Source: Elsinoe ampelina
Taxonomy: Eukaryota
Length of the DNA stretch: 22,809 bases
Direction: 5' to 3'
NCBI GenBank assembly: GCA_010093995.1
Contig: ML992507.1
Location: 1,511,147-1,533,955 of the forward strand
Positions 3,066 to 22,809 of the stretch are shown here, piece after piece (positions within the stretch are counted from its first letter, which is position 1; every line of letters begins with the position of its first letter). A program made the translations under genes and the position numbers. The notes under the pieces were generated by a model, which was not told the DNA's origin, did not search any database, and saw nothing but the letters and a program-made list of their open reading frames with translations.

Positions 3066-3502
3066 ACCTCATTGGCGCTTCGAAAGGTCGTGTGGATGTG
3101 TGTCAAGTCCGAGTGGGTGCGATCGTTTGTGTGATAGAGTGTATATTTGTGGTCGCTATTCGAAGTTGAGATTATTTCTTTGTCTGTCATGTTATGAAGT
3201 TAGGTATGTAGCAGCCTATAGAGAGGCCATTTGCGGCGGCCGGAGCTGTAGCGGACGGACCAACCAACAAGATTACTTCACGTCTTACTCTTCGCAATCT
3301 ACAATATTTTCCAGCGATCTCTTCGGAGATAGATTATCTCATCGGCATCGCCTTGACCGCCCATCTGTACCATAAAACGACCTGGTGTATAATAGAATGG
3401 CGCGCCTGTCAAGCGGACCTACACAGCTCACATGAAAGTGAGGACACCTACTCCATGTCTACGATCGTTCTACAATTGCGACCCTAGCATCAACTCGCAG
3501 AG
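3066..3502. promoter_or_regulatory. Putative bidirectional promoter between NEO1 and SEC16 (437 bp)
   Basis: Two divergent start codons lie 437 bp apart. No specific sites were identified with confidence. Confidence 0.6.
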
Positions 3503-6500
3503 ATGGCAAACCCTACCTCCGGCTCGACGCTCCTGTATCCTTCCGGCAATGCTTCTTGGAATCCAGCATTGAGACAACATTTCGAGACGCCATCGCCCGA
3601 TGCGCTCGCACATTCTCCTGCCTTGCCCGATGGACCGAACGATACTGAAGGCATAATAGAGGGCGAAGAGGAGAACACAACACCCGGCGATGTATCTGCG
3701 GGAGTCGGAACCACGAGCAGCAATGCCTACATCACCCAACACGATTCGGAGTTGGCGGTCGATACCGGTCCAGCAGTGGATCAGGCGCAAATGATTCCGC
3801 ATCTCCAAACGGCGACACATTCGCCCACCACTGCACCCCAACCGGACGCCTCACCGGAAGCTCAGCCGGAAGTGACCATGTCAGCGGACGATGATATCGG
3901 CGCGCAGGGGAGCAGGGATGTGGATGAGGAGATTATCCCTGGGGCTGCAAATCAAGTGCTGACAATGGACTCGGCTGATGAAGCTGTTCCGGTCGATCTC
4001 GAGGCGATACAACAGGCCGTACATGCTCCCCTTCAGATGGAAGTACCGCATGAAGATGCCACGGTTACAGATCTGCCTTCGGAGGACCCAATCTACTCTC
4101 CGAACCATACACAGTACGAGCATCAAGGAGATGCCACGGAAGCAGATATCGCAGTTGATGAAGCACCCACAGCTAGCTTATTACGCGAGCCCGAAGCTGG
4201 ACCCGACCTAGATTCTCCTATGGAACAGAGTAATGTTGAAATCACGGAAGAGGTGTTGGACAACGGAATCGCTAGCTTCGAGGACGTTACCAAGTCTGAT
4301 CAGCTCGGCAATTCAAAAGCATCAGAGTGGGACGATATAGAGGGCGGAGATGACTTTGAGAACATACTTGGAAAGTCTAGAGAGGTACCAACGAACGACC
4401 CGTTTGCTTCGGAGTTACAAGATTCCGACGCATTCCCACAGTCTGAGCCCGTGGTAGACCCGTTCGCAGCTGCATTGGCTGAAGATGATCTTAGCGAGGA
4501 GTCACAGAAAACAACAGGGCAAGAGATTCGAGATAATCAAGAGGACATTGAAGATCTCTGGGCAGCAGCGCTCGACGACGACGATCTATTGGATACCTCT
4601 GGAGCTGTCGATCCCAGTGGCTTCTTCGACGATGACGATGACGGAGGTTTTCTTGGTGACGATGTTACCAGTAGCGGTGATCAAGTCCCGCCTCTGCCAG
4701 CACAAACACAGCCGGCGCAGAGAAATATCAGCTACGCACCAGCTTCTGCTCCACAGCAACAGCAGAATCAGTATGCGCCCGTGTCACAATCACCTCTAAA
4801 CTATACTCAACAGTCTTTTGGGCCTCGACCAGCGTCAACTCCAACATCTTTCTTGCCGGTCATGCCGAATCAGTTCACAGAGTCCATCCCAGCGTCGCAA
4901 AGACCGACGCCAGCATCTTCTAGCAGCTTCGTTGACAAGTCGAAATCTGGCTATAGCTCACCATACGATCTACCTACAGACATTGTGGCTCCTCGCAGGC
5001 GAGCGCCAGCACCAGTGACGGCGCCAGTACAGGCGACTGCTCCACCTCCTCGAACCAGCAGCATGAGCAGCATGAATGCACCGCTAGGTGGACCACCTAG
5101 GCCACCTTCCAACGTATCTGCCATAGTTTCACCCACCACACCTTCCACGCAGACATCACAAGTGTCTCCAAGGAAAGTCAGCAATGACAAGTCTGGGTTT
5201 TTCGCAGATCTGCCTATTGCGCCCAAGGTGAGGTCGAGGCAACCTACATATACTCCAGCACCGGCGAATGCAATTGCAGCACCACCCCAACAGCCTCAAC
5301 CACCGAGATCTCTACCTCAGCCCTCGGCACCTCTTCCATCAGCCCCACAGCCACAAACGTATGGTGGACTGCAGCAGCCGGCGAGGCTCCCACTTTACCC
5401 GGATCAGATCGATCCATCTGGTGCACTATCTTCTCAACCACATGCGCCACCTGCAGCCACAAATCGATACTCGCCTGCTCCAGCAAGCCAACAAATCCCG
5501 CAAGGCAACAGATTCTCTCCCATGCCCCCAGCGCCTCCTGTGCAAAGCAGATATGCGGCAGCTCCTGGTGCACCAACGACTGCTGCCCAGCGTGCCCACT
5601 CTTTCATTCCGAAAACCTCAAGTCCACTCGCGTACCACGACGAGACTGAACAAGCAAAGCCTCGACAGGGATCCCTCACAAATATGGGGACCGACGCTGA
5701 TGCTGGACGGATACTAGGCCACAGATCACGTCTCTCCGGCCAACTTGACGATGATGCCATGATTCGAAGTCATCCAGAGAGGACGTTGACTCCACCACAA
5801 GGCGCAGCCAAGTCTGCCTCTGCACAAAGCTCTCCACGACATTCCACAAGGTATGCACCGTATGAAACGGGATCTGCTCGGGCAATCTCACCCCCGAATC
5901 GCCCACAGACGCAGTCTCCACTACAAACCAAGAGAGGCCCATCATCGTACGCTCCAGCTGCGGATCGCCGAACATCTACAGCATATGCTTCGCAACCTGT
6001 CCAGTCGTCTCAGCCTCAACTCGCTCTACCAAGTCGACGACAGTTTTCCACCGACCTCAACTTTGACGTGCCACAGGATGAGCGATCTGCGGATCACCTT
6101 GAGAGATGGAAAGGCCATCCCATCTTCCGATGGGCGCCCAGCGGCATCTTGATCAGCAGCTTTGCTAAACAGATGCCCTTCTATGCCGCAGGTCACGCAA
6201 TTCCAGTGATTAAGTGTACGGCTGGGCCGATCACTATTCATGACACCAAGGAGACATTCCCGCTGAGCGACAAGGACAATCGATTTCCAGGACCTCTACA
6301 GGGCAAGGGGAAAGGCAAGAAAAAAGACGTCGTAGCCTGGATGACGGCAAAAATAGAAGCTATGGATAAGGAGCTCGGTGAGACTCTGCTCGATCTGAGT
6401 ACGCCTACCCTGATCAAGCAGCGTGCAGAAGAGAAACTCCTGCTGTGGAAGATTGTGCAATTATTTATAGAGCACGACAACGCTCTTGAGGGAAAAGCCG

Positions 6501-9190
6501 GCGTTGACGATGCCATCCGACGACTTCTACTGCCCGGTGACATCGATGATTTATCCCCTCTAGTTGCACAACTTGATGCGGATCGGCAAGGTTCTGCTCC
6601 CGATCAAATAGATCCAAATGCGCTTGCCGAGGTCCGCAAGTTGCTGTTCGCAGGTCAACGTGAGAAAGCCGTGTGGTTGGCGACTGAGAAGAAGTTGTGG
6701 TCCCATGCCATGCTCATTGCCTCCACCATGGGCCCAGAGATCTGGAAGCAGTTGATCCATGAGTTTGTCAAATCGCAGGTCAAGGGTCCTGGTGACGGTA
6801 TGAGAAGTCTCGCAGCAGTATATGAGGTCTTTGGTGGCAATCACGACGAGAGTATTGATGAGCTGGTCCCGCCTTTTGCACGAGCTGGTCTGACCCTTGG
6901 CAACGGAGTTGGTGCATCAGCAGCTAGCATAGATGGCCTTGAAAAGTGGCGAGAAACTTTGAGCTTGATTCTCAGCAATCGCAGCGCCAACGATGGGCAA
7001 GCTATTGCGGCTCTTGGAAAGCTTCTCGCTGGCTATGGTCGCGTAGAGGCTGCCCACACCTGCTATCTATTTGCGCGGACTTTCGTCAACCACAGCGGCA
7101 CTGATGATCCAGAGGCGGCTTTCGTCCTTCTGGGTGCAGATCACAAGGCTCACAGTCCAGCTCTTGGCAGTGATCTGGATTCTATTATGCTCACGGAGGT
7201 GTACGAGTATGCTCAATCACTAAACCCCACACCAGGGGTCTCGTCGGTGATACCGCACCTTCAAGCCTACAAGTTGATACATGCATATGGCCTGGCTGAT
7301 CATGGAATGCGTTCAGAAGCCCAGAGCTATTGCGAATCCATCTACCAAGCGATCAAATCGACGACACGAGCATCGCCGTACTACCACGTGGCATTCACTA
7401 CCGCAGTCGAGGACCTCAATCGCTGTCTGTCGCAGGCGCCTCAAACGTCATCCTCGACCGGGCTATTCTCCAAACTGTCATCTGACAAGATGTCTGGAAG
7501 CATGTGGAAACGCTTCAACACCTTTGTCGCTGGAGACGACGACGACAATGCTTCAACTGGCTCGGGCCCAGGAGATCACGGTGACACTGCAGGACCGTTT
7601 GGGAAAGTCACCGGCAACAGTCCAGCAATTAGTCGGGCTCCTTCTAACGCGGACCTGTACGGAGCAATGTCAATGGGGGCAGGCATGAACGGTAGTGTCG
7701 CTTATGGGACATCGCCAATGTCACCGAACGCCGTCTATAATACCTCTCCTGGTCAAGCTGTCCAACAAGGAAACGACCGCACAGTCAGTGGACGGTACGC
7801 ACCTCAGGCTCCGGGAGCCCTCACGGCTCAGAGGAAAGCCAGTACCACTCGACCCTACGAGCCACAACGGACAGCATCTGGGTACATCCCACCTGCTGCG
7901 GGAACAAGAGCGCCGTCAAAATCATACGCTCCTTACACACCTCAGCCACAGGAAGGTAGGCAGCCCAGCTACGGCGCTTATACTCCTGCAGTAAAACCGG
8001 ATCAGCCAGTAAGGTCATCCTCGGACTACAATGTACCATATTCGATCGGGCAAGGTGCGCAGCCCACGATTCGACCTCCGTCAGCGGGATTGCATGTCCC
8101 GCCTGGTCTCGGATCTCCATACAAGCCTCAACCATCACCACTCAGCGCCGAATCTTCCCCACCCTCGCAGAATGGATATGTTCCGTCAATAACACAATCA
8201 CCTGAACCTGCTTCCGACCACCATGTAGAAGAAAGTCAAGGGTATGAACCTCCATCAGCGACTTTCCAGTCGCCAGCATCGAATAGCTACGAGCCGCCGT
8301 CTGCATCTTTCGAGCCACCCACGGCATCCTACGATCCTCCTTCAGCGTCCTATGAGCCTCCATCTGCCTCCTTTGATGATGAGCCAGCTCCATCCTCCGA
8401 AGACCCTTCATCATCCTACGAACCTCCCATCTCGTCATACCAACCGTACGAGCCTACCTACGACGACACCCCAGCCGACGACGAACCCCGACCGAAAAGG
8501 AAAGGCATCATGGACCTCTCAGACGACGAAGACTTCCCCCGCCCCACCCCTCCACCAAAACAACCCTCATCCTCATCCACCGCCGCAGACCGCGCCGCAG
8601 CCGACAAAGCAGCCGACGAGGCCTTCCGCAAAGCCGCCGAAGCCGACGCCGAGCGCGACAAACAAGCCAAAGAACTCGCGGCCAAGAAAGGCTGGTTCGG
8701 CGGCTGGTTCGGCAAGAAAGGCAGCGAAGACCTCGACCAACAACCTAAAGCCATCCGAGCCAAGCTGGGCGAAGAGAACAGTTTCTACTTCGACAAGGAC
8801 CTCGGCAAATGGGTCAACAAAAAAGGTGGCAAAGAAGAGGAGACAAAAGCCGCCGCCACTCCGCCCCCGCCTATGGCTGGGCCACGCAAGGGGACGCCTG
8901 CTCCCCCCATGGGGCCGGGGAGTGCCCCGCCGAGTAGAGTCGCGAGCGGTGTTGGGCTCGCGGGTGCGGGAGGACCGCCGAGTCGACCGCCGACGTCGGT
9001 GCCGAACGGGACGCCACCGCTTGGTGGGCCGAGGACGGGAACGCCGGGGTTGGAGATGCCGAGTAGGCCGGGGACGGGGTTGAGCAATGCTAGTAGCATC
9101 GATGATTTGTTGGGACCGGCGGGGGCGAAGAAAGGGACGGTGAGGGGGAAGAAGAAGGGGGGGAGGTATGTGGATGTTATGGCTAAGTAG
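3503..9190 (+). CDS. SEC16: COPII coat assembly / ER exit site scaffold Sec16 (1895 aa)
   Basis: Acidic and Pro/Ser-rich disordered N-terminus. Central conserved domain motifs RWKGHPIFRW, FPGPL, LWSHAMLIAS, KWRETLSLILSNR, AAHTCYLFA and HLQAYKL. C-terminal motifs KGWFGGWF, AKLGEENSFYFDKDLGKWVNKK, SIDDLLG and RYVDVM are typical of fungal Sec16. The exact start codon is less certain. Confidence 0.95.
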   Translation: MANPTSGSTLLYPSGNASWNPALRQHFETPSPDALAHSPALPDGPNDTEGIIEGEEENTTPGDVSAGVGTTSSNAYITQHDSELAVDTGPAVDQAQMIPHLQTATHSPTTAPQPDASPEAQPEVTMSADDDIGAQGSRDVDEEIIPGAANQVLTMDSADEAVPVDLEAIQQAVHAPLQMEVPHEDATVTDLPSEDPIYSPNHTQYEHQGDATEADIAVDEAPTASLLREPEAGPDLDSPMEQSNVEITEEVLDNGIASFEDVTKSDQLGNSKASEWDDIEGGDDFENILGKSREVPTNDPFASELQDSDAFPQSEPVVDPFAAALAEDDLSEESQKTTGQEIRDNQEDIEDLWAAALDDDDLLDTSGAVDPSGFFDDDDDGGFLGDDVTSSGDQVPPLPAQTQPAQRNISYAPASAPQQQQNQYAPVSQSPLNYTQQSFGPRPASTPTSFLPVMPNQFTESIPASQRPTPASSSSFVDKSKSGYSSPYDLPTDIVAPRRRAPAPVTAPVQATAPPPRTSSMSSMNAPLGGPPRPPSNVSAIVSPTTPSTQTSQVSPRKVSNDKSGFFADLPIAPKVRSRQPTYTPAPANAIAAPPQQPQPPRSLPQPSAPLPSAPQPQTYGGLQQPARLPLYPDQIDPSGALSSQPHAPPAATNRYSPAPASQQIPQGNRFSPMPPAPPVQSRYAAAPGAPTTAAQRAHSFIPKTSSPLAYHDETEQAKPRQGSLTNMGTDADAGRILGHRSRLSGQLDDDAMIRSHPERTLTPPQGAAKSASAQSSPRHSTRYAPYETGSARAISPPNRPQTQSPLQTKRGPSSYAPAADRRTSTAYASQPVQSSQPQLALPSRRQFSTDLNFDVPQDERSADHLERWKGHPIFRWAPSGILISSFAKQMPFYAAGHAIPVIKCTAGPITIHDTKETFPLSDKDNRFPGPLQGKGKGKKKDVVAWMTAKIEAMDKELGETLLDLSTPTLIKQRAEEKLLLWKIVQLFIEHDNALEGKAGVDDAIRRLLLPGDIDDLSPLVAQLDADRQGSAPDQIDPNALAEVRKLLFAGQREKAVWLATEKKLWSHAMLIASTMGPEIWKQLIHEFVKSQVKGPGDGMRSLAAVYEVFGGNHDESIDELVPPFARAGLTLGNGVGASAASIDGLEKWRETLSLILSNRSANDGQAIAALGKLLAGYGRVEAAHTCYLFARTFVNHSGTDDPEAAFVLLGADHKAHSPALGSDLDSIMLTEVYEYAQSLNPTPGVSSVIPHLQAYKLIHAYGLADHGMRSEAQSYCESIYQAIKSTTRASPYYHVAFTTAVEDLNRCLSQAPQTSSSTGLFSKLSSDKMSGSMWKRFNTFVAGDDDDNASTGSGPGDHGDTAGPFGKVTGNSPAISRAPSNADLYGAMSMGAGMNGSVAYGTSPMSPNAVYNTSPGQAVQQGNDRTVSGRYAPQAPGALTAQRKASTTRPYEPQRTASGYIPPAAGTRAPSKSYAPYTPQPQEGRQPSYGAYTPAVKPDQPVRSSSDYNVPYSIGQGAQPTIRPPSAGLHVPPGLGSPYKPQPSPLSAESSPPSQNGYVPSITQSPEPASDHHVEESQGYEPPSATFQSPASNSYEPPSASFEPPTASYDPPSASYEPPSASFDDEPAPSSEDPSSSYEPPISSYQPYEPTYDDTPADDEPRPKRKGIMDLSDDEDFPRPTPPPKQPSSSSTAADRAAADKAADEAFRKAAEADAERDKQAKELAAKKGWFGGWFGKKGSEDLDQQPKAIRAKLGEENSFYFDKDLGKWVNKKGGKEEETKAAATPPPPMAGPRKGTPAPPMGPGSAPPSRVASGVGLAGAGGPPSRPPTSVPNGTPPLGGPRTGTPGLEMPSRPGTGLSNASSIDDLLGPAGAKKGTVRGKKKGGRYVDVMAK
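8285..8368 (+). repeat. In-frame 21-nt coding tandem repeat in SEC16, 4 x S-[YF]-[ED]-P-P-[ST]-A
   Basis: agctacgagccgccgtctgca / tctttcgagccacccacggca / tcctacgatcctccttcagcg / tcctatgagcctccatctgcc, with further degenerate YEPP units on both sides. Confidence 0.85.
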
Positions 9191-12168
9191 GGATGGGGAG
9201 CAAAGGGGATGTATACATTTCTTTGTGCTTTTTGTTCGGGCTCGATGTATCTTACGGTGGTGCCATGATGAGTGATTGCCTAGAGGTATATCTCGTCGAG
9301 TATCTTGCTTCTGCGGATATCTGTATCGAGTGTTGGAGAACCTGCTACCTACTGGCATGATCGTCAAGCACGTGATCGACATCTCACTTGCTGCACTCGA
9401 CACACTGCACAATACTATTCGGACTCTGCATGCCCGGATTATGCCTGTGCAAAGCCATCAACATGCGCATGACAGGGACTTTACCTCACCCTCAGCCAGC
9501 ATTTGACCGTATATCCAGTTGGACCAGAATAGAAGAAAGGGCCGAACATGAACGAAGTATCATTGAGATGTGCCCGAAAGCATAGACATTGACTTACCTA
9601 ATCAGGACGATGTGAGACTTGCACGAGTCAACCTCAGTTCGTAGATGGTCAATTATCAGGACCTACATGACCATTCTGTGTATTCGCGAGGCTATTCCTG
9701 CGTTTTGTACCGGATTGTGGCCTAAGTGCAATGTGTGCTTTGTATGGCAGATGCAGGTCGGTGGCGGGCCTTGGCTGATGTCGGCTAATCACTTCCACGA
9801 GCAGTCAGGCGACCTGGTCATCTCCCTCGCAGCCTGAGACACAGAGGAAATAGGCGAATAGGCCTCTGGAGTGCTTGCCTATCGTGTCTTGGGTATGAAT
9901 GCCTGGAGAGAGATGATCGCTCGGTATAGCGGCTCAAGTGGCATGCATCAGACTTCCGTCATGGGTGCCTGCATTCAATGTTGCTGTGACCGGCTGCCTC
10001 ATTGCATCGCTGTCCATGACTGCAGATCGTATGAGTATGACGAGACGGGTGCTAGGCACGTTCCTCTCAGAAAGCAATGAGTGACTAAGGAGAAGCAATG
10101 AGAACCTTGTTGGTATGGAGGCCCCGCAAAAACACCCGCCATAAGGTCAATTTCAGCTCGACCGACTCCCTCTCCCAGTCCCGTGAAAACCCGAAAGAAT
10201 TGCTCTGGATCCGATTGATTGCATCTTCGCAATTGCTCATCACCTGTGCAAACATCGAAAAGCAACTCCTCTCGCCACCAGGAGCGGCACGATCCAGGAT
10301 CGACCAAAAGACGAATGCGGTGATCTTCAGTCCGGCGGAAAGACCAAGGGGAAACGTGGGATCCCCAGCGGACACCTTGACATCATCGCGCTGACCCATC
10401 AGAGCACGCTCCGACGAATGAGATGCTTCATACACCCATTCCACGCGACAAGGAGGCAGAACGTGACAACTCACGTCTTTACCGCTGGCCTCTACGGGCA
10501 TCATAGTTGGCATCATCTGGCCATCGTCTGGATCGCCAGCACACCGTCTTGCTGCCCGCTTCTGCTAGACCGACTTGACCATGACTGGCGATCTTCCTTT
10601 GCCTCAGGAGAGTCAACGGTCATCAAAGGATATGCTCGGCGGTGATGAAAGATGATCAAGACACGCGACCATGTGCGGATCGAAGTAGAGAAACACGGTA
10701 ACACTGTCTCTACAGCGATCTGCAGCTTCATGGTCGGGACGCCGAACTTGGTGCCTTTGATACAGACCAGAAACAGGGGAACCGGACACCAAATGGCATG
10801 TCAGACAGCGCATAGGGCCGCAGAATCTGGTTTTGGGCGCACACTCAGCCGCATCCTTCTGCATCTCAGCTTCCAGAACCAACACGCATCAAAGGAACAC
10901 ACGCGCCGTGAAACGCGGTCGGCACAGATCTGTCGTCACGCTACCGAGCTGCACGTCCTCTGCAGCAGCCACGCCTTGTTCCCCCTGCTTTTCCCATCAA
11001 TCATCCATGATTTTGCCGTGATTTTCGTAAACATCATCGTGGGTCTCGCCTTCCAAATTTTCAATTCATCTCCGCTTCTTCCTTTGATTCATGCCCCGCA
11101 CTGAATTCAATAGATTCGTTCAGACTAAGCGCCAAAGTGGTCATATGAGCTTAGTAGTCATCAAACTTGTATGCCGATCTGGGAAAAGTTGCCGGTGGAC
11201 TCGACAAGACCTGCTCCATGGACAAAATAAACTAATTAGACTATCCCACGATCGACGGTCTGGTGGCTTGTGGCTCGCGCCTCCCGCACGCCCACCCTTT
11301 GACCCCAGATTCCCAAGCCTTGTCGGGGCTGACCTCGCCCGAACACATCACGTCCTGCCCCCCTCATCACCTAGCGTGAAAGTACGCGCTCCCACCGCTC
11401 ACAGGTCATGCGCAGGTACAAGGCTCTCCAGGTCGGGTGAAAACTCCGTCACAGCAAGGCTCGACAGCTGCGCCGCTCGGTGCCCCGCGGGCATGGTTGC
11501 ATTTCCCATCTGCAAGCATTCCTTGACGAACTTCTCCATCATCTTGCCATCCGCGCCGAGCCAAAACTTGTACCGCTCTCTTTCCTTTCTGGTAGCGTGC
11601 CCCTCGCGCCGTTCCAGTCCGTCCGGAGATCTCGTCATACGCTTCATCTGAACCCAGTCTGTCTTCTCTATGGCATCTCTCTGCTGTTCTCGCGGCGACT
11701 TGGCTTGCAAGCATACGGCTGGGTCATCAGCTCAATCTCAAGTATAGGTACAGCAACACTGGTGGCCTCGGATCGATCTCGTCCCGCCGATCCCGCTTCG
11801 TTCTTGGAAACATACCGCCTGCTGAGCCTCTTGTAGGTAAACCATGCGGACCCTCGGTGCAGATCATCTTGACCTGATCTAATCTTCTTTCGCCCAATCC
11901 GGCACGCCTGTTGTCTAAATTTCCATCTGTATGACGTACAGGTACCTGACCGACTTGTTTTCCTCCTGACATGCACCTCGTGCCCACGCAACGACAGCAC
12001 CACACGCGCATCAATTCGCGCTGCCTCATTACAGCCCAATGACAGTCAGTGCTTGCCATCCGAGCTTGCCTACATGTCGGTCAGATGTCGCGCGTCATGC
12101 CCTGGCCATGCTCGGCGAGGTTGCTTGGAACATTTCCGGTCCTTCTCAGCTGAACCCACTCAATTCTC

Positions 12169-12174
12169 TATAAG
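12169..12174 (+). promoter_or_regulatory. Candidate TATA box of the GH43 gene
   Basis: TATAAG lies 144 nt upstream of ATG 12313 and is followed by a pyrimidine-rich leader. Confidence 0.35.
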
Positions 12175-12312
12175 TGAGCCTGAGGTAACCCTTACTTGCT
12201 TCCCGATCTCTCCATTGCTCGCTCACCGGAAGAAGCTCAGAGGCCAGCCCTGATCCCCACTTACTCCAAGAGGGAATAATCTCCAATCCCAAACCTCGGA
12301 CAGCATCTCACC

Positions 12313-13305
12313 ATGCTCTCCCCCCATCTCCTCACCACCCTCACCGGGCTGGCATTAGTCACCGCCAACCCCATCTCCAAACGCCTCGTCAGCCCCCCCG
12401 TAATCAGCCAAGACTTCCCCGACCCCTCCCCCTTCTTCGAGTCCGGCACCTGGTACGCCTTCGCCTCACAATCCAACTTCACCCGCGGCGGACCCAAAGT
12501 CCAAGTCGCTTCATCTCCCGACTTCACCACCTGGACCGTCCGCGAAGGCTACGACGCCCTCCGCTCCCTCCCGCCCAACACAATCGACACCAACGAAGTC
12601 TGGGCCCCGGACGTCACGCGCCTCAACGACGGCTCCTTCCTCATGTACTTCGGCACCACCCCGGCCTCGGACCGCGGGAAAAAATGCATGTACACGGCGC
12701 GCAGCACCACCCTCCTGGGACCCTACGACCCGGACCCGGAACCCTTCGACTGCTCCCTGTCCGAGGGCGGGTCGCTCGACGCATCGGGCTTCGTGGACGA
12801 CGACGGCACGCGGTACGTGACGTGGAAACTCGACGCCAACAGCCTGGGCAACGGGGGGTCGTGCGGCAACAGCGTGCCGCCGCTGGTGGACACGCCGATC
12901 GTGATCCAGCAGGTGGGCGCCGACGGGGCGACGAAAGTGGGTGATCGGACGGTGATTTTGAACCGGGACGACATCGATGGGCCGACGGTCGAGGCGCCAA
13001 AGATCATCAAGAAGGAGGGGTTTTATGTCTTGTTCTTTTCGAATAATTGCTTCAATAGTCCGTACTACACGCAGAGTTATGCGTATAGTAGGAATGTCAG
13101 GGGCCCGTATACCAAGGCGGCGAGGCCGTTGTATACCCTGGGTACGCAGGGGTTGTCGGGGCCCGGAGGGGGGGAGGCGACGGCGGATGGGAGTAGGATG
13201 GTTTTTCATGCGTTGAGGGAGGGAGGGGTGAGGTTCATGCATACGTCGAATTTGGAGTATAATGTTGGGGGGTTTGGGGAGGGGAGTATTGAGATTATTG
13301 GGTAG
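12313..13305 (+). CDS. Secreted glycoside hydrolase family 43 (single five-bladed beta-propeller; arabinanase/arabinofuranosidase/galactofuranosidase-like), 330 aa, intronless
   Basis: Signal peptide MLSPHLLTTLTGLALVTA followed by NPISKR (Kex2 site). GH43 motifs DFPDP (catalytic base), WAPDV, GGSLDASGF (pKa-modulating Asp) and VEAP (catalytic acid). Strong codon bias. Confidence 0.93.
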   Translation: MLSPHLLTTLTGLALVTANPISKRLVSPPVISQDFPDPSPFFESGTWYAFASQSNFTRGGPKVQVASSPDFTTWTVREGYDALRSLPPNTIDTNEVWAPDVTRLNDGSFLMYFGTTPASDRGKKCMYTARSTTLLGPYDPDPEPFDCSLSEGGSLDASGFVDDDGTRYVTWKLDANSLGNGGSCGNSVPPLVDTPIVIQQVGADGATKVGDRTVILNRDDIDGPTVEAPKIIKKEGFYVLFFSNNCFNSPYYTQSYAYSRNVRGPYTKAARPLYTLGTQGLSGPGGGEATADGSRMVFHALREGGVRFMHTSNLEYNVGGFGEGSIEIIG

Positions 13306-13682
13306 GACTTGCAATGATGGTCGAGGGAGATGAGATCCGGACTTGGATGTTCTGGATGTTCCGACGACTTGCTTTCGATCTTAATGCTTTCGGCTTCACG
13401 CTCGTTTTATACCCTTTTGCGGGCACGGCTTCTGCGACACGTTTCTCTGCGATGCGATAAAAGATGAAACGAAGACAGTAATGAGGATATGATGATGGAA
13501 AATGGGAATGAGGGTGGCTTGTCCACCCTTGTTGGGATATGATCTGGCAGGCGAGGAGCTCGGCGCTATAGTCTATAGTCTGTCAATGAATTTCTCCCTT
13601 ACCTACTTCTCAATGATGCCTTTGAAGTAAGCCGGGATTGCCGTGTCGTTCTCGTACACTGCCTCACGAAGTCGACGCGGTA

Positions 13683-15174
13683 TCACATGACTCTCAGTCT
13701 CCCGTCCCGTGTAACATAAAGGAGCATGTTCAGCGGAGAAGATGTGCATGACCGATACATGTCCCAGACACGCTTTGCATGTGCATGTGCTGGAAGAATC
13801 TTACTCCCCGCGTGATGCTGATCTGCAATACGGTAGGTAGGCAAAAGGTATGCCTCGGTCTTTGCAGATCTGGGCTGATGGCAGTGACAAGTTCTGAGCA
13901 TATGACAGATGACGTCTTTGCGTGTTGACGTTGGTGGTTCTGCTGTCACATGCTGCTTCGTGGTGTGGAATGCCGAATTGCGCCGAGATGCCGCAATCCA
14001 GTTCTGGTAGGATGTCACGTGCCCCGCGCTGTAGAACGATGTGATGGTCGACCAGCGATGGCTTGTGCAGTACTAGTCTGTGGTGCAATCGATGTTACCG
14101 AGTATCGCTAGCGATGAACGTGGAGTAGTTTGGTCTCGCAGTAGAGTGATCTTGCTCGGCACGTGAGGGTGGGACAAGCAATAGGAGGCCGTGTCTAGAC
14201 CGGTGTCAATAGATGCTTCGACGATCAGTGGCACGAGTGCTGGTAGACAGGAATATGCCCCTCTTCTGCCCAAGTGCCATGGATGCTTCGAGGCCTGTCA
14301 TGCGGCATGGCTGCCATAGATGGAGATGGCGGGGTAGACTCCGGGGTACCGGTGGGTGGCATGACTCGCAAGGGTGGAGAGAAGGAAGTCGGTGTAGCTG
14401 ATGAGGAAGAAAAGTGCTCTATCCAATTCGAGGATGCTTGCTTTTCATCGGTCCGATTGCTTGCGCGAAACCCAAGGTCTCTCAAAGGTTCGCTTGTGGA
14501 CGGAAAGTGATTCCGGAGCTGTCAACATACCATGTTATCCAGAGCAAGGTACTGCGTCGAGAAGCGACTTCAGAACAGCGTTCAAGCTCGGTGAGATTGA
14601 GGTGCACCATCGGAGGATGTTGGTGCAGCGATGATGGCTCCTGGGAGCCGATGTTCGATGGCCGACTGGAGATGTATCATCTCACAAGCTTCATCAATGT
14701 GGTACGTGTTCCATTCGAGACGTTTCACCAACGTCATCGCCACCACTGTGTCCTCTTTGCGAATTTGGGTCGAAAAGACATTTGTCCGTTCTTCCACCAT
14801 GAACCACGGCACAGCCTTCAAGACCCGACTCGATAAGGCCACAGTAATCTCTTCCAATGGGCATCCGCCGGCCACGATCATGAACGCTCCGCAGTTTTAA
14901 CTTCAGTCGCGAGCCAATGCCCTTCATCAGAGCCCTTCCCACATCACTTGGCGACGACGACGTCAAATCTACCATGACAAGCTTCCCTCCAAACGACCGT
15001 GCTTTATCGGCCTCATTTTCGCTTTCAAATTCGGTGGAATCCTCATCCACCGAGCTGGAGGATATACTAGAAGGACTTGCAGCTGGGTCGGTGTTCTGAT
15101 TGTGAACATCCTACCATCAGAGTATCTATACATGGTGCGTATCATTGCGATAGTAAGACTACATCTTTCAACAT
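13683..15174 (-). pseudogene. Probable decayed gene of unknown family (spliced 5' end, several frame breaks)
   Basis: ATG TTG AAA GAT (15174-15163), then a candidate 52-nt intron 15162-15111 (gtagtc...ctgatggtag) that splices in frame to DVHNQNTDP...VDEDSTEFESENEADK. Protein-like minus-strand fragments follow in changing frames (14582-14881, 14225-14485, 14073-14273, 13683-14018). No recognisable domain, and the donor site is weak. Confidence 0.35.
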
Positions 15175-15340
15175 AATCGCCTGGAGAAGATGGAAATCAA
15201 CCTTTATCAGCCCTCGTCTCGCGTCAGAAAAGTCTCTGTGTTGCTGTGTCGATTGACCCTAACCTAGGCAACTTCAATAATAGAAGCAGGGTATTAGGTG
15301 TCGGAAAACTCTTCAGTCTTGCTTAAGGGGGAGCGTCGAA

Positions 15341-15347
15341 TATAAAT
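15341..15347 (+). promoter_or_regulatory. TATA box of the small secreted protein gene
   Basis: TATAAAT lies 116 nt upstream of ATG 15457. It is followed by a C/A-rich leader and a strong start context (gcaaaaATG). Confidence 0.65.
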
Positions 15348-15456
15348 AAGCTCACCTTTCCACTCTACATCGAACACCAGCACCACTTTTATTAACCTGC
15401 ACAACTTCTATTCACCTGCACAACAACAGTCCCTTCAGCTGTTCTTCAACGCAAAA

Positions 15457-15981
15457 ATGATTCTCGGTCGTTTCAGTCGTGTCATCCTGGCAGTACTCTG
15501 CCTCTTCTTGAGCCTTGCTGCTGCTTCGCCAGTTGCCAAGCGTGACGCTAGCGATGTGGGATTCGTCACCGGGGAGCCCTTCACTGCCTTGGGCCAGCCA
15601 ATCACTGACTTGGACACCATTTCAACGTGAGCATCAAGGCGATTTAAGCAGAAGTGGACACTAACCCGTAACAGGGAGGAGAACGCGGAACTAGTAAAGC
15701 GCCAAAACCCAAGTGGAGTAATCAGCATCCCACCTAGGCGGACACCTGGTTTCAACGACATCATAGTCGGAGCTGTCAGGGTCATCACCTACTACACCGT
15801 AAAGGGCGCCATTGAAATCTACGTCAAGAACCTGAGTCCACACGCGGCTGCGTACAAACTCATTCACGCTCCGGGAGGAATAATCACTGGAATTGTCCCA
15901 GCTAACATGCAGGATCATTACACAAACCCTGCAAACTTCGGTCCGGGCGACCTTATTGACATCGCTGCCGTTCCTAGATAG
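15457..15981 (+). CDS. Small secreted Kex2-processed protein (158 aa; exons 15457-15626 and 15675-15981); effector/toxin candidate
   Basis: Not in the ORF track. Spliced translation: MILGRFSRVILAVLCLFLSLAAA-SPVAKR-DASDVGFVTGEPFTALGQPITDLDTISTEENAELVKR-QNPSGVISIPPRRTPGFNDIIVGAVRVITYYTVKGAIEIYVKNLSPHAAAYKLIHAPGGIITGIVPANMQDHYTNPANFGPGDLIDIAAVPR*. It has a signal peptide, two KR sites and an acidic pro-region, and a canonical intron restores the frame. Confidence 0.9.
15627..15674 (+). other. 48-nt spliceosomal intron of the small secreted protein gene
   Basis: Donor GTGAGC, branch site ACTAAC (15660-15665), acceptor CAG. Phase 2; splicing removes an in-frame TGA. Confidence 0.9.
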
Positions 15982-16238
15982 ACACCTAAAACGCCGACAC
16001 AAGAAAGGAACGATGCCGCTTATAAGGCGGCTAGGGAGTTAGCGTGGAAGAGACTATTCTCACGGGATAGAGCGTAGTGCTTCACTTCATTTTGTCGACA
16101 CACAAGTCTTGGAGAGTAGATTGCGTATCACGCATTCTACATACAAGCTAGTGTATTACTTTCCGATCTTAGTCTAGCCTAGCTGACAGCCACTCGTTTA
16201 CAAGTTTAGAATGAGCATAAATAAACTCCTTTTTGTGT

Positions 16239-17080
16239 TCACCAACAATCGGGCATGATGGGCTCGGCAATAGAGTCTGTAAAGAATCCTTGCTCAACGG
16301 TGGTGAGCATATCAAGGGATGTAACTACCAGAAATAGTCAATCGTGCTGCATAAGTGCTTCAAACCAAAGTACTCACGATCATTGCCACGACTCAAAGAG
16401 GAATTGTTCAGCTCCTGCTGCAGGAGGCAAATTCGGATCCGTGGAGGCAGTGTGTGTTGTCAAGACAAGGACCTCTCGAAGCACTATCGATCAACTCCAT
16501 GTCAACGAGCTTTCGTCCGGGACGAATCTTGCCAGGCTGTTTCTGGAACCACAGCCACTTCTGTTGACCAATTGCAGAAGCGACTGGCACCATGAGAGCA
16601 ACGCGCATGATTGTGGACAAAGAGGCGATGAGTGAGTTGAGCGTGAACACCGTGGAGGTCCAATCGGACACCAGAGTGTCGTCTGCTTGTGCTAAGACGA
16701 CGACAATCGCAATGTAGCAGCCAAAGGCCACGAGCATGCCAGAGATTTCCCAAAGCCACTATGTTGACGCGAATTGGAGGAAAGTACTCCAGCACGACCG
16801 TTCTGACTGGATGACTTTGGGCTCGTCGAATGCCTCGTGCTTCGGAGGAGGTGTTGGAGGCCTTGATGTCTGCCTGGTGTCGATGGAACTGTCGTCGAGC
16901 ATACCGCGATAGGACTGTGGTGTATTTGTAATAGATTGGTGGTCGGTTAGGTACGAGTCGCTGCCGGGGCTCGCTGAGCAGCCACTGCTGTTCATGCATA
17001 GGCGAAGGGGGAAATAGGTTACTCTGGATAAGTGGGGACGCTGGACGTCCTGCTGGGCTGGGGTAGTTCATCGGCTCCAT
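16239..17080 (-). pseudogene. DUF3176-family membrane protein pseudogene
   Basis: Family motifs (W)WLWEISG, FTLNSLIASLSTIMRVALMVPVASAIGQQKWLWF and LIDSASRGP. Lesions: frameshift near 16995-16999, in-frame TAG at 16759-16761 where TGG is expected, frame break and apparent deletion right after ASRGP, and early end at EPIMPDCW* (16239). A 53-nt intron at 16377-16325 (GTGAGT...TTGAC...TAG) is still recognisable. Confidence 0.82.
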
Positions 17081-17825
17081 GATTCAAGCGAGTGTGATTT
17101 CCAGTAGCAACGAGAGATTGCAAAGGGAAGAGTAGGGAGAGAGGAGAGAAACGACAGTGAGGACTTTAATAGAAGGAGTGGGCAATGTATGCCTACTCAC
17201 ACCACCAGGCGCAGCTGCGCCCTCTTGTGCTAGCTCAGCATCGAGGTCGAATGACCATCCACTACATGCTGGGCCAGACCGGCAGACGTATGCGCCAAGC
17301 CACCCTGCAGAGAGGAAGATGGGTGGCAGCAAAGATAGAGCAGCCAATGCAGAGCGTGGGCGCGGCTGAAAAGCATCTTCGTGCCTGTACTGCATTGGCT
17401 GTAAGCGCAATCCCAAAGAGCTAATGGATTGGTTGGACCTACCATACAGCTGAGACTGCCTCGTTACGCTTACCGGGAGTGGCAAAACAGGCGTAGTGGA
17501 CGTGGTTGCTAGCAGCGTGTCTACCACAGATTGCGCTCGAGCAGGTCAGTCCGCGGTATGGGGCACCGCAACGTGTGACAGCGAGGGGCACCGCGTGGGA
17601 TATGACCAATTGCGCCTGGAAGAACGTGGTAGATCATTGATCCCTTGTTGTTGCCTTTACGAGGTAATCTTGTGAATTTGGGAGGTGAAGCCGGAACATT
17701 AAGATGGAGCAGAAGTCTAAGTTCACTTATCATACCCAACCCTGACACAGACGGGAAAGTCACACGCAGCCATGAGGACAACAAACATTTGTGATTGTAC
17801 ATTACGCTATCCCACAACCCTGCTC

Positions 17826-19889
17826 TCACCCCCTAACCCTCAAACTATTACTCCTCCTCTCCTCCGCCCTATACCCCCTCTTCCTCCCCGTAACCTTCAG
17901 CACCAAATCCCCCACCCCCCTCTCCGGCTTGAACTCCACCTCCTGCCCCTGCTTCACCTCAAATTTCCTCCCCACCTCCCTCCGATCAGCAATCCACTGC
18001 GCCTCCAACGTGACCCCAGGATCCCACCGCCCCACGCTCGCCGTCACCCTTCCCCTTCCGTCGTTCTTGACCTCCGGATCCGCTTGTCTGGCTTTCGCCG
18101 CTGCCCGGCCGCCGTGAGCGAGGACTTCCTCCCACGCATTCCCCCTGCTCGTCGGCACGGTCACGGCAGAGTCGAGCGGCGTCTTGCCATCCGGTGCATG
18201 GTCTTGGATCCACTGGTAGACGAGCTCGAAGAACTCCCATTGAGGGAGGTTGTTGTAGACACCACCATGGGGGCGGGTGGGGAGGTAGGTGAAATTAGCC
18301 CAGCCTGCGCCTCCCAAAGCTTCGACTTTCTTCTGGAACTCCTGCACGCCGAGGTTGAGGTAGTAGGTGTCTCTTCCGCCGACGTAGATGAACATGCGGT
18401 TCTTGAGGACTTGGCCTAGGTTCCGTGAAGAAGCCCAGTTGGAGGTGATGTACTCTGCTAGATCGAAGGGTTTCCAGAGCTCGACGGCGCCGGGGTAGAT
18501 CTCGCCCGTGTACTTGTCCCATGCTTCGAGGGGGTAGTTGTTGTAGCCTTGGGCGGAGAAGACGGCTTGCCAGACGTCCCATTGGAGGAAGGAGCGGGTA
18601 GAGGTGCCGAAGGAGAGTTCCCAGTGGTTTTCTTGCTGGGTGGTGGCGAGGACGACCTCGGTGTCGTTGACGAAGGTGCGGATTGAGGGGATGCTGCTGC
18701 CGTCGGCGTTGAAGTAGGCGTTTTTGTTGGTGTAGAGAGGAATGGCTTGGTGGCGGATGAAGGAGAGAGAGTCCGGGTAGGAAGAGAAGCAGGCACCGAA
18801 GAGGTCTGGGCGGTAGGCGAGGGAGGCGGCGGAGATCCAGCCGCCTGTGCTGCCGCCTTCTTGGACGCGAGCGTAGGGTTCAGCGATGGTCCGGAAAGTA
18901 GAGTCGATGAGAGGAATCATTTCGTCGTTGATTGCGTCGCCGTAGGGGCCGATGTTGGCCGTGTTCACCGCATAGCTGTCGTCGTAGAATGGAGCTTCGT
19001 GGCGGAAGGTGACGTGGATGAACTTGGGGGTCGGTCTGCTTGGAGAGCTGTTGGTCGCGGGAATGATACCAGAGTCCCACTGAGCCGTGAAAGCCTCACT
19101 GTACCGCCAGTCACCTCCAGTCCAGTGATCTTGTTCATACACAACGGGATAGCGAGTGGTGGAGTTGGCATATCCAGGCGGGAGACGGATGTTCGCGCCA
19201 ACATACATGTCTCTGCCCCAAAATTTGCTCAATGCTTCGCTGCGGATCTTGAGGTGCTTGAGCGAGCCGGCGTCTTCGTAATTGCCCTGATTGCAGCCAC
19301 CAATCTCGCTACCAGTAAAGTCCTCTGGGCCGGTGACGTTGGTGAATTTCAATTCAACAGTCTGCCCACGACCAGTGATTTGCACATCAGTGATGACAGA
19401 TGTCAGACTGCCGGGACCATTGATAGTTGCGCCGCCGTCACCGCACGGGAAGCGGACGCTGACCTTTGACCCATCACTGCGTACAGCAGTCTCGTACTTG
19501 GTCAAGAAAGCCTGGACACTGTAGCTGCCAGCTGGGATCTGGTTCAAGCTGACGTTCGGCCATCCGTAGACGCCAGTGTCGGTGTCAACACTGCTACCTC
19601 CAGAAAGTGTGATGATGCTACCAGCTTCGATGCCGAAGACATTCTTGCCAAAGATCTTGTCAGGTGAGGAATCGACTTCAGTGTCTTCCAGTGGATCGGT
19701 GCCAGCAGGTGCGAACAGGACATGCACGCGGCCGTCGGTGGTATTCGACAGAAGTCCGTCGGCAATTGACAGACGGACATTCAAGCCTCGTTTGGCATAA
19801 TCTTCCGGTGCAGAAGTGGTCGACTGTGGAAGAGCAATAACCGCCGACACGGCAGTCAAAGCAAGACCGAAAACCCGAAATCCAACCAT
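17826..19889 (-). CDS. Secreted alpha/beta-hydrolase (putative esterase, enterochelin-esterase/CE1-like), 687 aa, intronless, with a C-terminal Ig-like module
   Basis: The likely start is ATG 19889 (MVGFRVFGLALTAVSAVIA signal peptide, then YAKR Kex2 site), not the GTG at 19952. Nucleophile elbow GGSTGG (18857-18840), candidate acid GGRDTYYL, candidate His PTRPHGG, and the conserved block YDDSYAVNTANIGPYGDAI. Confidence 0.88.
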   Translation of the reverse strand: MVGFRVFGLALTAVSAVIALPQSTTSAPEDYAKRGLNVRLSIADGLLSNTTDGRVHVLFAPAGTDPLEDTEVDSSPDKIFGKNVFGIEAGSIITLSGGSSVDTDTGVYGWPNVSLNQIPAGSYSVQAFLTKYETAVRSDGSKVSVRFPCGDGGATINGPGSLTSVITDVQITGRGQTVELKFTNVTGPEDFTGSEIGGCNQGNYEDAGSLKHLKIRSEALSKFWGRDMYVGANIRLPPGYANSTTRYPVVYEQDHWTGGDWRYSEAFTAQWDSGIIPATNSSPSRPTPKFIHVTFRHEAPFYDDSYAVNTANIGPYGDAINDEMIPLIDSTFRTIAEPYARVQEGGSTGGWISAASLAYRPDLFGACFSSYPDSLSFIRHQAIPLYTNKNAYFNADGSSIPSIRTFVNDTEVVLATTQQENHWELSFGTSTRSFLQWDVWQAVFSAQGYNNYPLEAWDKYTGEIYPGAVELWKPFDLAEYITSNWASSRNLGQVLKNRMFIYVGGRDTYYLNLGVQEFQKKVEALGGAGWANFTYLPTRPHGGVYNNLPQWEFFELVYQWIQDHAPDGKTPLDSAVTVPTSRGNAWEEVLAHGGRAAAKARQADPEVKNDGRGRVTASVGRWDPGVTLEAQWIADRREVGRKFEVKQGQEVEFKPERGVGDLVLKVTGRKRGYRAEERRSNSLRVRG

Positions 19890-19954
19890 GACGAACTGAA
19901 GATTAATAGAAACGACACGTCGTGACCTTGACGTCGTTGAAGACATCCTCACCT

Positions 19955-19960
19955 CTTATA
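19955..19960 (-). promoter_or_regulatory. Candidate TATA box of the hydrolase gene
   Basis: TATAAG on the minus strand ~70 nt upstream of ATG 19889. Confidence 0.5.
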
Positions 19961-19974
19961 AAGACCTCGCATAC

Positions 19975-20116
19975 TGTTGTAACTAGCAAATCGGATCGAG
20001 AGACGTGTGTTTCATTCAGAGAGTTACAATAACCGATTTATCTACTGTGCGTGCGCTGACTCATTAGTACCAGTTCTTTAGTACTAGAGAAGCTATACCA
20101 GCCTTCTATTATAACA
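19975..20116 (-). repeat. 3' LTR (142 bp)
   Basis: The minus strand begins TGTTATAA directly after the PPT and ends TTACAACA. These termini are an 8-bp inverted repeat with one RIP-type mismatch (TGTTGTAA vs TGTTATAA). Predicted 5-bp TSD is CATAC (19970-19974). The partner LTR is outside the window. Confidence 0.85.
20057..20063. promoter_or_regulatory. TGACTCA Gcn4/CpcA (AP-1-type) consensus inside the LTR
   Basis: Exact match to TGA(C/G)TCA, ~170 nt upstream of the hydrolase ATG. A single 7-mer, so function is unproven. Confidence 0.3.
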
Positions 20117-20126
20117 CTCCCCCTCT
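20117..20126 (-). other. Polypurine tract
   Basis: AGAGGGGGAG directly abuts the TG of the LTR, the typical copia arrangement. Confidence 0.9.
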
Positions 20127-20476
20127 GGTATAGATTGCTAAAGCTAGAGAACTGTCCTATTATATATAAGTAAAGTAATTAGCTTATTACTTTATCTCTT
20201 TGTAATTGCTTATAATTGTTAGTATTAGCTAATCATTAGTAAGAATTTACTATTAGTTTAGCTTATAATTACTAGCAATAATAGTAACTATTAATAATAG
20301 CTAGGCAGCTATTATTTATATAAATAGACTAGCTTATAAGTCTTAATTAAAGAGATATAAGTATCTAACTAGCCTCTTTATAATTTCTCTTTCCTTTATT
20401 ATACTTATAGTAGTAGCCTTTTCTTTTATATAACACTTTTACCTTCTTACTATACTATATTAATAATACTTATAAT

Positions 20477-21750
20477 ATAAGCACTATAGTGTAGTAATAG
20501 CTAGGTATTAGTAGCATTACTACTAGTGCTAGTGCTCTAAGTAGTCTACTAGGTAGCGGAGGTAGTAGTAAGAAGAGAAATCCTCTATTAAGGTTACCTA
20601 GTACTTCTAATGTTAATTATAATACTACTATAAGACTAATTACTTGTCTTAATGCTCTTAGTAAGTAGCTATAAAGCATTAATAGCATAAGCTAACATTA
20701 ATAGCCTAATTAACTTAGACTTTAACTTAATAGTTAGCCGACATAATCTAGAATACTCTCCTTAGGCTTAGGATAATTAGTTATTACAACTATACTAACT
20801 TATATCCTATCTAGAGGTCTATAGTAGTCTAGGCCTTTAGTACCTATAGTATATACCTAGTAGTTACTAATTCTATTCTAGTTAAGGATCTAACTAAGTA
20901 AGTTAACCTTACTAGATCTACTAACTACTCTACTACTTTAATAGCTTCTAGTGCTACTAGTAGAGTAGTCTACTATAGCACTAATCGCTATACTAAGTGT
21001 TAGGGATCTAACCCTAGTAATAATTAGAGTAAGGGTAAGAGTAGCAAGTTTAGTAAGTATATTACTTTGCCTAGTTAGCTTAATAAGGCCTACACTTACT
21101 ATACTTATAGTAACTAATATACTAGATGTTCCTTAGCTAACTATACTCTAACTCTAAGGCCTATTAGCTCTCCTAAACCTATAAGGACCCCGAGTAGCTT
21201 AAGGGTTATTACCTAGCCTATTCTATATAGCCTAATACACCTACTAATAGAGCTCCTAAGGTCTATCTCTTTTAGTAGTACTTTACCTTAGAGGTTCTTA
21301 CTAAGGGCCTATATACTAGGAGTATTATTAGGTGTAGTTAATACCTTAATAACTTATACTAACTCTTGCTACTTTATAGTAGTCCCTATAAACTTTATAG
21401 ATCCTACTAACCTAATCGCTACTAAGGTTCGTAACTTAGCTACTATAGTAATAAACTATATAGTAGAGCTTATAAGGATTATAGCTACTAGCTACCCTAG
21501 TTAGCTTTCTCCTATTTATGCCTTTATACTAGGCCTAGCACTAATAAGGTATAGTAGGTCTAGATCTAACACTTCTATAAGGTCTACTAGTAGTAATAAG
21601 GGAAGGAGTTCTTCTTCTATAAAGAAGTAATTAGAGGTAGAGGATAGGTAGAGGTTATTAAAGGTAATAATAGTACTAAGTAGTAGATATAGCTTAGGCA
21701 TAAGTAGCTAGTAATAGAGTTATAATAGCTTTTCCTTTCTCTCTTCTTAA
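20477..21750 (+). pseudogene. RIP-degraded antisense gene inside the copia element; Cys6 DUF3716-like domain; at least one intron (20661-20704)
   Basis: The plus frame at 20986-21135 reads RYTKC*GSNPSNN*SKGKSSKFSKYITLPS*LNKAYTYYTYSN*YTRCSL. Reversing RIP-type transitions (TAT/TAC to TGT/TGC, TAG/TAA to CAG/CAA, AGT to GGT) gives RCTKCQG...GKGGKFGECITLPGQLxxACTxCxYGNQxTRCSL. The intron GTAAGT...GCTAAC...TAG joins an upstream Gly/Pro-rich KKR-containing frame to this frame. Start (ATA, read as ATG) and stop are estimates. Confidence 0.7.
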
Positions 21751-21897
21751 TAATAAAATAATTTACTTTAAGCTTTAGATAAATAAGATAGCTTAATAAG
21801 TAGTAGTAGCATAAATAACATACTTAAAATAATAATATATATAAAATCTAAATAAGTATATAGTATAGATATATACTAAGTAATTAGCCTTTGCTAA

Positions 21898-22809
21898 TTA
21901 ATTAAGGATCTTATTAGGAGACTTAGGCTTTATAAGTGTATTAGCTAATTACTAAGTTATATTAATATACTTAAGCTTAATTACTCTAAGTTTATACTAC
22001 TCTCTATAGTAATAATTCCTTAAATTAATATACTTAGATCTCCTTAAATTAGTATAATCTCTTATAAGTTTAATAGCTAACTTGTTATTAACAAAGACTA
22101 TAGTTAGGCTAAGGTAAATATTAGTAAGTGGCCTAAGTTTAATAATAAGATTTCTTAACTAATTAATCTCTCTATAGGTCTTAGTAAGGGCAAGGTATTT
22201 AGCCTTAGTACTTAATAATATAATAATCTTCTATAGCTTTAACTTCTAAATAACTAGTGCACTAAGTATATAAATAATAGTACTAGATATAGATCTTGTA
22301 GTTAATCTATCTCTAGCAAAGTCTAAGTTAGAGTAGGCCTTAATTGTGTTAACTAATAGTCTATTAGTCTTCTTAAAGGTAAGGCCCTTTATAATAGTCC
22401 TATTAATATACCTCTAGATCTACTTAGCTATAACTATATAAGCTATAGTTAGATTCTAAAGGAACCTAGCTAGGTAATTAGTAGCATAGCTAATATTAGG
22501 CCTTATATTGTTAGCTAAATATTGTAATTTACTAATGATTCTATTAAATGTCTTATAGTACTAAGCATTAACTTAGCTATTAGTTAGTTTATAGAGTTAA
22601 TTAATAAAATACTTTATAGTTCTTACTTAGTAAAGATTATAATCTTTAAGCTTCTCCTTTAAGTAGTATAATTACTTAATCTTAATTAAGTTCTTAGTTC
22701 TATAAAGTTAAACACTAAGGAAGAGGTTTAAGTTTATAATCTTTATTAGAAACTTAAGATAAAGATCTTTAACTAGCTTATCTATATACTTCTACCTAGT
22801 AGTAATAAT
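21898..22809 (-). pseudogene. pol: Copia pol remnant: RT C-terminus and RNase H
   Basis: One frame with RIP stops: IISKLQYLANNIRPNISYA (=IGKLQY..TRPDISYA), AYSNLDFARD at ~22338-22309 (=YSDSDFAGD), LLSTKAKYLAL (=LSSTEAEYLAL), VFVNNKLAI (=VDNKSAI), RSKYINLRNYY (=RSKHIDLRNH), LANTLIKP (=LADTLTKP). Confidence 0.95.

Follow-up and report, generated by a model that had tools for sequence, protein, structure and literature searches.

A candidate DUF3716-type gene antisense to pol in a RIP-inactivated Ty1/copia retrotransposon of Elsinoe ampelina

Antisense extra genes of LTR retrotransposons are a long-standing puzzle, being widespread in plants and having neither a known function nor a recognisable domain. 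Maize Grande, rice RIRE2 and Silene Retand are Ty3/gypsy elements, and the Boty element of Botrytis cinerea is a Ty3/gypsy chromovirus. In the three plant elements the antisense extra ORF (aORF; gene23 in the case of Grande) lies between pol and the 3' LTR, and the passages of PMC7264820 that deal with such ORFs describe them as frequent in some families, of unknown function and without a clear database match.

Fungal counterparts have been reported for each half of the present case. Boty-like retrotransposons of B. cinerea possess an additional antisense gene, brtn, which is cited in PMC8365987, PMC7264820 and PMC4227169; where PMC4227169 treats Boty, it gives the gag-pol a chromodomain and calls one Boty-like gag-pol potentially functional. 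PMC8365987, which took the domains of each family from a GC-rich copy, draws the extra ORFs of other Botrytis LTR families in its supplementary figure S1. The class II (IS3EU-type) transposon REP9 of Zymoseptoria tritici contains the DUF3716 genes REP9-1 and REP9-2, according to the account of them in PMC8232023. A preliminary description of the locus studied here knew of no account of it as a fungal copia system; a general lack of fungal precedent is not supported, given brtn in Boty-like gypsy elements (PMC8365987, PMC7264820) and the DUF3716 genes of a DNA transposon (PMC8232023). Our literature search found no link between DUF3716 (PF12511) and a retrotransposon, and no fungal LTR retrotransposon described under the term 'antisense ORF'; figure S1 of PMC8365987 may include a copia example.

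The locus lies at the end of a stretch of 22,809 nt, which was analysed as a whole and is referred to below as the window. The window end is probably the 3' part of a RIP-killed Ty1/copia element on the minus strand, with a captured antisense gene of about 230-243 codons whose product would be of DUF3716 type.

The copia element at the window end

Positions 1-19974 of the window are ordinary fungal gene space with a GC content of 0.49-0.62, in which the following genes were placed:

3-3068, minus strand: P4-type phospholipid flippase
3488-9190, plus strand: Sec16
12280-13305, plus strand: GH43 hydrolase
17829-19889, minus strand: esterase-family protein with a signal-peptide-like start

The distance from the end of the esterase gene to the LTR of the element is 85 bases. 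In a database search the esterase protein was 95% identical to that of Elsinoe batatas, 82% to that of Sphaceloma murrayae and 79% to that of E. fawcettii. At 19975 the GC content drops to 0.27-0.40 and stays so to the window end, over a stretch comprising these features:

19975-20116, minus strand: 3' LTR of a copia element, 142 bp (direct reading and contig edge)
20117-20126, minus strand: polypurine tract AGAGGGGGAG, adjoining the 3' LTR on its upstream side (direct reading)
20127-20901, no strand assigned: spacer without detectable coding frame, which would be the promoter or upstream side of the plus-strand ORF (shuffles)
20902-21630, plus strand: antisense extra ORF, RIP-inactivated, 243 codons, position mod 3 = 1 (shuffles)
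20989-21132, plus strand: cysteine-rich motif near the N-terminus of that ORF (per-codon RIP-compatible residue sets)
21631-21897, no strand assigned: tail-to-tail spacer from the stop of the extra ORF to the stop of pol (two stop positions)
21898-22809, running off the window end, minus strand: C-terminal reverse transcriptase and RNase H of copia pol (protein searches)

The identity of the element was established from its pol. A reading of the minus strand from 21796 to 22809 with stops written as X (P0002) was searched among longer proteins, and all seven of the seven matches at E ≤ 0.01 were RVT_2-bearing (PF07727) copia polyproteins of the TNT1-94 type, the best having an E value of 1.5e-5. 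BLASTP against the best match, P0004, aligned residues 19-294 of the reading with residues 677-950 of 970 (E 3e-15), and the first in-frame stop after the aligned part is at 21898-21900. The pol frame has 16 stops in 303 codons, an openness that was reached in none of 2000 shuffles (mean minimum 30.6). Together with the LTR and the polypurine tract, the RVT_2-type matches and the C-terminal alignment bear out the assignment to Ty1/copia made in the preliminary description. The same is true of its observation that some 1.77 kb separate the end of pol from the polypurine tract, as shown by the pol stop at 21898-21900 and the tract at 20117-20126.

The spacer between the two stops contains one further frame of note. 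In 21631-21897 the most open frame is the minus frame at position mod 3 = 1, which is not the pol frame; 3 of its 89 codons are stops, a value that was reached by 26 of 1000 shuffles. This frame is borderline and could be due to chance or be a short frameshifted tail of pol.

The LTR has the ends TGTT(A/G)TAA...TTATAACA and reads TGTT...AACA whichever strand is taken, that is, it is of the TG...CA type. Its outer edge was located by comparing Logan contigs of four runs with 19500-22809 at 80% likeness: loose contig ends fall at 19973-19974 in three runs and continue into other sequence, and the summed contig depth rises from 133-155 to more than 100,000 in the bin 19944-20054, at the LTR edge. 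No second LTR copy was found within the 22,809-nt window. The window covers the 3' part of the element, 19975-22809, and the remainder lies beyond the window end.

Several side observations concern the edges of the element. In X6, a run guessed to be RNA, contigs matched the flank and the LTR only, over the compared 19500-22809, and in some of them LTR sequence is fused at 19973-19974 to unrelated GC-rich sequence; this suggests solo LTRs, or LTR ends within transcripts, elsewhere in the genome. Among the loose ends near 19974-19980, organisms A and B have in common, left of the LTR, letters (GGCTTATAAC...) that are unlike the flank in the window, and this is what the primer-binding-site side of a 5' LTR would look like. 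At 20127, beside the polypurine tract, the window has G and most other copies have A in both same-organism runs (81,722 of a summed depth of 87,118 in run X1).

The interior of the element is heavily mutated by RIP, for which the usual thresholds are about 0.89 for TpA/ApT and about 1.03 for (CpA+TpG)/(ApC+GpT). Relative to the flanking gene, where these indices are 0.64 and 1.08, the region of the extra ORF (2.83 and 0.12) and pol (1.87 and 0.21) both have the composition of a RIP-mutated repeat, and over 20415-21667 the values are 2.58 and 0.17. The indices in the gap are at least as extreme as those in pol, in agreement with the earlier claim that the gap had been mutated as heavily as pol. 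Differences between the window and the other copies, as seen in the contig comparison, are nearly all C/T and G/A transitions, and all copies seen are RIP-mutated. The LTR itself is less affected, with a GC content of 0.39 and a (CA+TG)/(AC+GT) ratio of 0.76 versus 0.12-0.24 inside.

An ancestral antisense frame and its cysteine motif

The plus strand of the gap contains a frame that was once coding. Of its 243 codons over 20902-21630, 8 are stops, namely seven internal TAG or TAA codons and the terminal TAA at 21628, versus 22-53 stops in the other five frames. Not one of 1000 dinucleotide shuffles of this interval had any frame with 8 stops or fewer (mean minimum 23.7, standard deviation 2.7), and none of 2000 shuffles of a slightly different interval, 20850-21650, reached the observed openness. 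All eight stops are a single RIP transition away from CAG, TGG or CAA, and the frame is continuous, with no frameshift across its 243 codons. No start codon survives; a candidate former start is the ATA at 20941, which RIP could have derived from ATG. The coding signal of this frame is stronger than that of the adjacent pol. The ORF is on the strand opposite gag-pol, with the pol stop at 21898 on one side of it and the polypurine tract at 20117-20126 on the other, and thus has the position of an aORF.

The ORF is an ancestral coding frame inside the element and is not copia gag or pol. An origin as an inverted copia fragment was considered and rejected: compared with seven copia polyproteins it gave a best E value of 3.0, whereas pol gives 1e-8 to 1e-14. 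No terminal inverted repeats, target duplications, or long or LTR-like direct repeats were found around the ORF, where short low-complexity matches were the only ones present.

These results uphold the proposal of a gene on the opposite strand of the gap and redraw its extent. The preliminary description had the gene occupy 20477..21750; its antisense frame stands and its start at 20477 does not, the coding signal beginning near 20902. In 20127-20900 no frame is open beyond what shuffles give (89 of 1000 reached the observed minimum), and the same holds for the sub-stretches 20470-20700 (204 of 1000) and 20701-20901 (994 of 1000). A basic KKR patch near 20570, which had been put forward as a possible nuclear localisation signal of the protein, falls away with this part: it is in frame +2, not the frame of the cysteines, and there is no coding signal there. 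An intron joining the frame +2 ORF at 20501-20668, which contains the patch, to the cysteine frame was also rejected, as the phases do not fit; intron-like words are present (GTAAGT at 20661, TACTAAC...AG at 20793-20814), and such words are abundant in RIP-mutated DNA.

The cysteine codons reported in the preliminary description are exactly where it had put them, all six in one plus frame (position mod 3 = 1): TGT at 20998 and 21127, TAT at 20989, 21058 and 21100, and TAC at 21091. Two cysteine codons of the motif are thus intact and four are now tyrosine codons. To reverse RIP, each T before A was allowed to be C and each A after T was allowed to be G. Read in this way, the motif is C-x2-C, 19 residues, F-G-E-C-[IV]-x-L-P-G, four residues, A-C-T-x-C-x-Y, five residues, C-S. 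The cysteine pattern of DUF3716 is CxxC ... F..C[VI] ... CxxC.Y ... CS, and RIP reversal permits all six cysteines of it together with the Phe, the [IV], the Tyr and the Ser. A regular expression for this pattern, not derived from the Pfam model and drawn up with the sequence already in view, had a single match across all six frames of 20121-22809, which fell in the open frame, and matched in none of 1000 shuffles. These findings support a product with a six-cysteine, zinc-type domain that would be compatible with DUF3716. Readings of the CxxC as a gag CCHC knuckle or as part of an integrase HHCC domain were compared by eye with the RIP-compatible residue sets and do not fit them.

Database searches with the ORF returned little. 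Pfam gave no match at E ≤ 10 for five readings of the ORF (the whole and four sub-pieces), the model for PF12511 having 59 positions and a cut-off of 22 bits. Because a control, the equally mutated pol (the whole and two sub-pieces), likewise gave no Pfam match, this silence is uninformative about DUF3716. With phmmer no homologue of the ORF was found among 1.84 billion representatives; the sole match, a bacterial Ig-repeat surface protein (P0003), is spurious and is explained by its composition, rich in Thr, Ser and Val. None of 3103 candidates in a word-indexed search with the ORF reached E ≤ 10, and the PDB gave no match. The PF12511 model itself had no matches in a record of E. coli or in 14 control genomes.

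The ORF might be genuine and carried by the element, and encode some other cysteine-rich or unrecognised protein rather than DUF3716, much like the plant aORFs with their lack of database matches; we consider this alternative doubtful. In its favour are the missing matches in Pfam, the PDB and the protein databases, and two positions of the consensus that RIP reversal cannot restore, the Asn of C-A-N-C and the Gly two residues before it. Tyrosine codons are moreover very common in RIP-mutated DNA, so that reading tyrosine as former cysteine costs little: when the regular expression was loosened by dropping the Phe, 26 of 1000 shuffles matched, and when the upstream CxxC was dropped as well, 138 of 1000 did. 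Set against this are the occurrence of the full motif once in six frames, and there in the one open frame, and the failure of the pol control, which deprives the unsuccessful searches of their weight. On balance there is rather more reason to accept than to doubt that the gene encoded a small protein whose N-terminal part held a six-cysteine zinc domain of DUF3716 type.

Copies, origin and role of the extra gene

A single copy of the element is readable in full, and the window holds one copy; the others are seen as contigs. In the two same-organism runs 5625 (X1) and 2291 (X2) pieces matched the compared stretch. The summed depth, which is not a copy number, is 59,000-177,000 in every bin of 19944-22809, ORF included, as against 133-155 in the flank. 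Short same-organism contigs of about 130 letters lie as densely over the ORF as over pol. They include copies that are not identical to the window, differing from it at 10 of 124 letters in 20941-21064 and at 8 of 126 in 21161-21286, or 6-8%. Because such non-identical contigs span the whole stretch including the extra frame, the frame belongs to the multicopy element; the ORF is part of the copy that was amplified in this genome. The earlier statement that the region was multicopy and had travelled with the element is thereby supported, by thousands of non-identical same-organism pieces.

The family appears to make up a very large share of the repeats of the genome, given thousands of short non-identical contigs on 2.8 kb. 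For a published assembly of E. fawcettii, by contrast, a table in PMC12941528 gives a repeat content of only 2.36%. In public DNA collections, RIP-degenerate DNA patterns of the ORF, with Y or R at RIP-prone sites, had no matches in viral_contigs and metagenome_contigs, and a RIP-degenerate pattern of the junction between LTR and polypurine tract had none in metagenome_contigs. Neither these scans nor the protein searches with the ORF yielded an intact copy.

Some copies lack parts of the gap. Three joints were found, 20171>21624, 20414>21668 and 20198>20353, which skip 1452, 1253 and 154 bases, respectively, and each is seen in one contig; they represent a few element copies with deletions in the gap. 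Organism B, whose flank gene is about 90% identical to that of the window, was represented by run X3, in which the LTR side and pol are covered and 20610-21608 is without cover at 80% likeness, missing cover not being evidence. A single contig of organism B agrees with the window over 20282-20409 except for 6 differences, beyond which its next 255 letters are unlike the window.

These structures bear on a second alternative, namely that the segment is left over from some other mobile element, such as a fragment of a REP9-like DNA transposon, that came to lie in a master copy and was passively amplified, serving no function for the copia element. DUF3716 genes are indeed known in a class II transposon (PMC8232023, in its account of REP9), and both the rare same-organism forms that skip 1253-1452 bases including the ORF and the departure of the organism B contig from the window after 20409 speak for it as well. 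However, the ORF is not bracketed by terminal inverted repeats, target duplications or LTR-like direct repeats, it has no similarity to copia proteins, and there is no transposase-like frame elsewhere in the gap. The three joints differ in their end points, and in two of the contigs the shorter side is only 30-31 letters long; the joints resemble independent deletions more than one insertion boundary. We therefore regard debris of another element as unlikely. Finally, it is scarcely credible that the open plus frame is an artefact of RIP composition or the mirror of a sense-strand ORF such as an env-like gene or an extension of pol: RIP-mutated DNA is strongly codon-biased and frames opposite coding sequence are often partly open (minus frame -0 has 0 stops in 20941-21090), but dinucleotide-preserving shuffles were never as open (0 of 1000 and 0 of 2000), and over 20902-21630 the minus frames have 22, 22 and 53 stops versus 8 in the plus frame.

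As the likeliest history we see a single capture, by which a small zinc-domain gene came into the 3' spacer of a master copy; amplification, passive or assisted, would have come next, and RIP last. The gene would have been captured once by the master copy. Lying antisense in the 3' untranslated spacer, it could have had its own promoter and terminator without these interfering with the RNA of the element, and it would have been copied at each retrotransposition until RIP destroyed all copies.

Whether the gene was of use to the element is a separate matter. More probably than not it was a passenger; that it helped the element is conceivable, and the less probable of the two. The anti-silencing or targeting role that the preliminary description had suggested for the product is pure inference. 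In the most far-reaching form of the idea, a DUF3716 gene for a DNA-binding protein was captured antisense in one Elsinoe species and the composite, in place of the plain element, became the dominant repeat, with the protein promoting the element; we think this improbable. The protein might then have steered integration or blunted the defence of the genome, until RIP caught up. Were this so, DUF3716 would be an accessory module that recurs in both classes of fungal mobile elements, REP9 included.

The wider meaning of the locus depends on the zinc domain. If the domain is real, the extra gene of a fungal copia element gives the aORF question a handle, as a fungal DNA transposon also carries this domain, and so does a protein reported to be orthologous to a binder of telomeric sequence. 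For annotation, the locus indicates that gene captures in AT-rich, RIP-mutated blocks can escape standard domain scans altogether, even pol being without a Pfam match here. Since the copies seen are dead and the domain is putative, the present value of the finding is that of a lead. Its significance would rise with intact relatives showing a recurrent association of DUF3716 with retrotransposons.

Comparison with known systems

The ORF is most like the plant aORFs in its place, since it lies between pol and the 3' LTR and antisense to gag-pol, the arrangement set out in PMC7264820. Where that paper characterises plant aORFs, it has them in most copies of a family and mentions a suspected nuclear or regulatory role. 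Unlike the plant cases, the host here is an ascomycete, the element is Ty1/copia and the copies seen are RIP-inactivated; the ORF also has a six-cysteine motif and may encode a DUF3716 domain.

With Boty and brtn the locus shares a fungal LTR retrotransposon and an extra antisense gene besides gag-pol, brtn being represented here by the papers that cite it. Unlike Boty, the element is copia and was seen in RIP-mutated copies only, and brtn is set beside the ORF by description and not by sequence.

The closest parallel for the domain is REP9, whose DUF3716 genes, in the part of PMC8232023 that concerns them, are of unknown function and have no signal peptide. REP9 is a DNA transposon in which DUF3716 was shown with Pfam, whereas the element here is a retrotransposon in which a DUF3716-type domain is suggested by the RIP-reversed motif. 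What it shares with REP9 is a Dothideomycete host, a multicopy mobile nature and an extra gene, here a candidate, of DUF3716 type.
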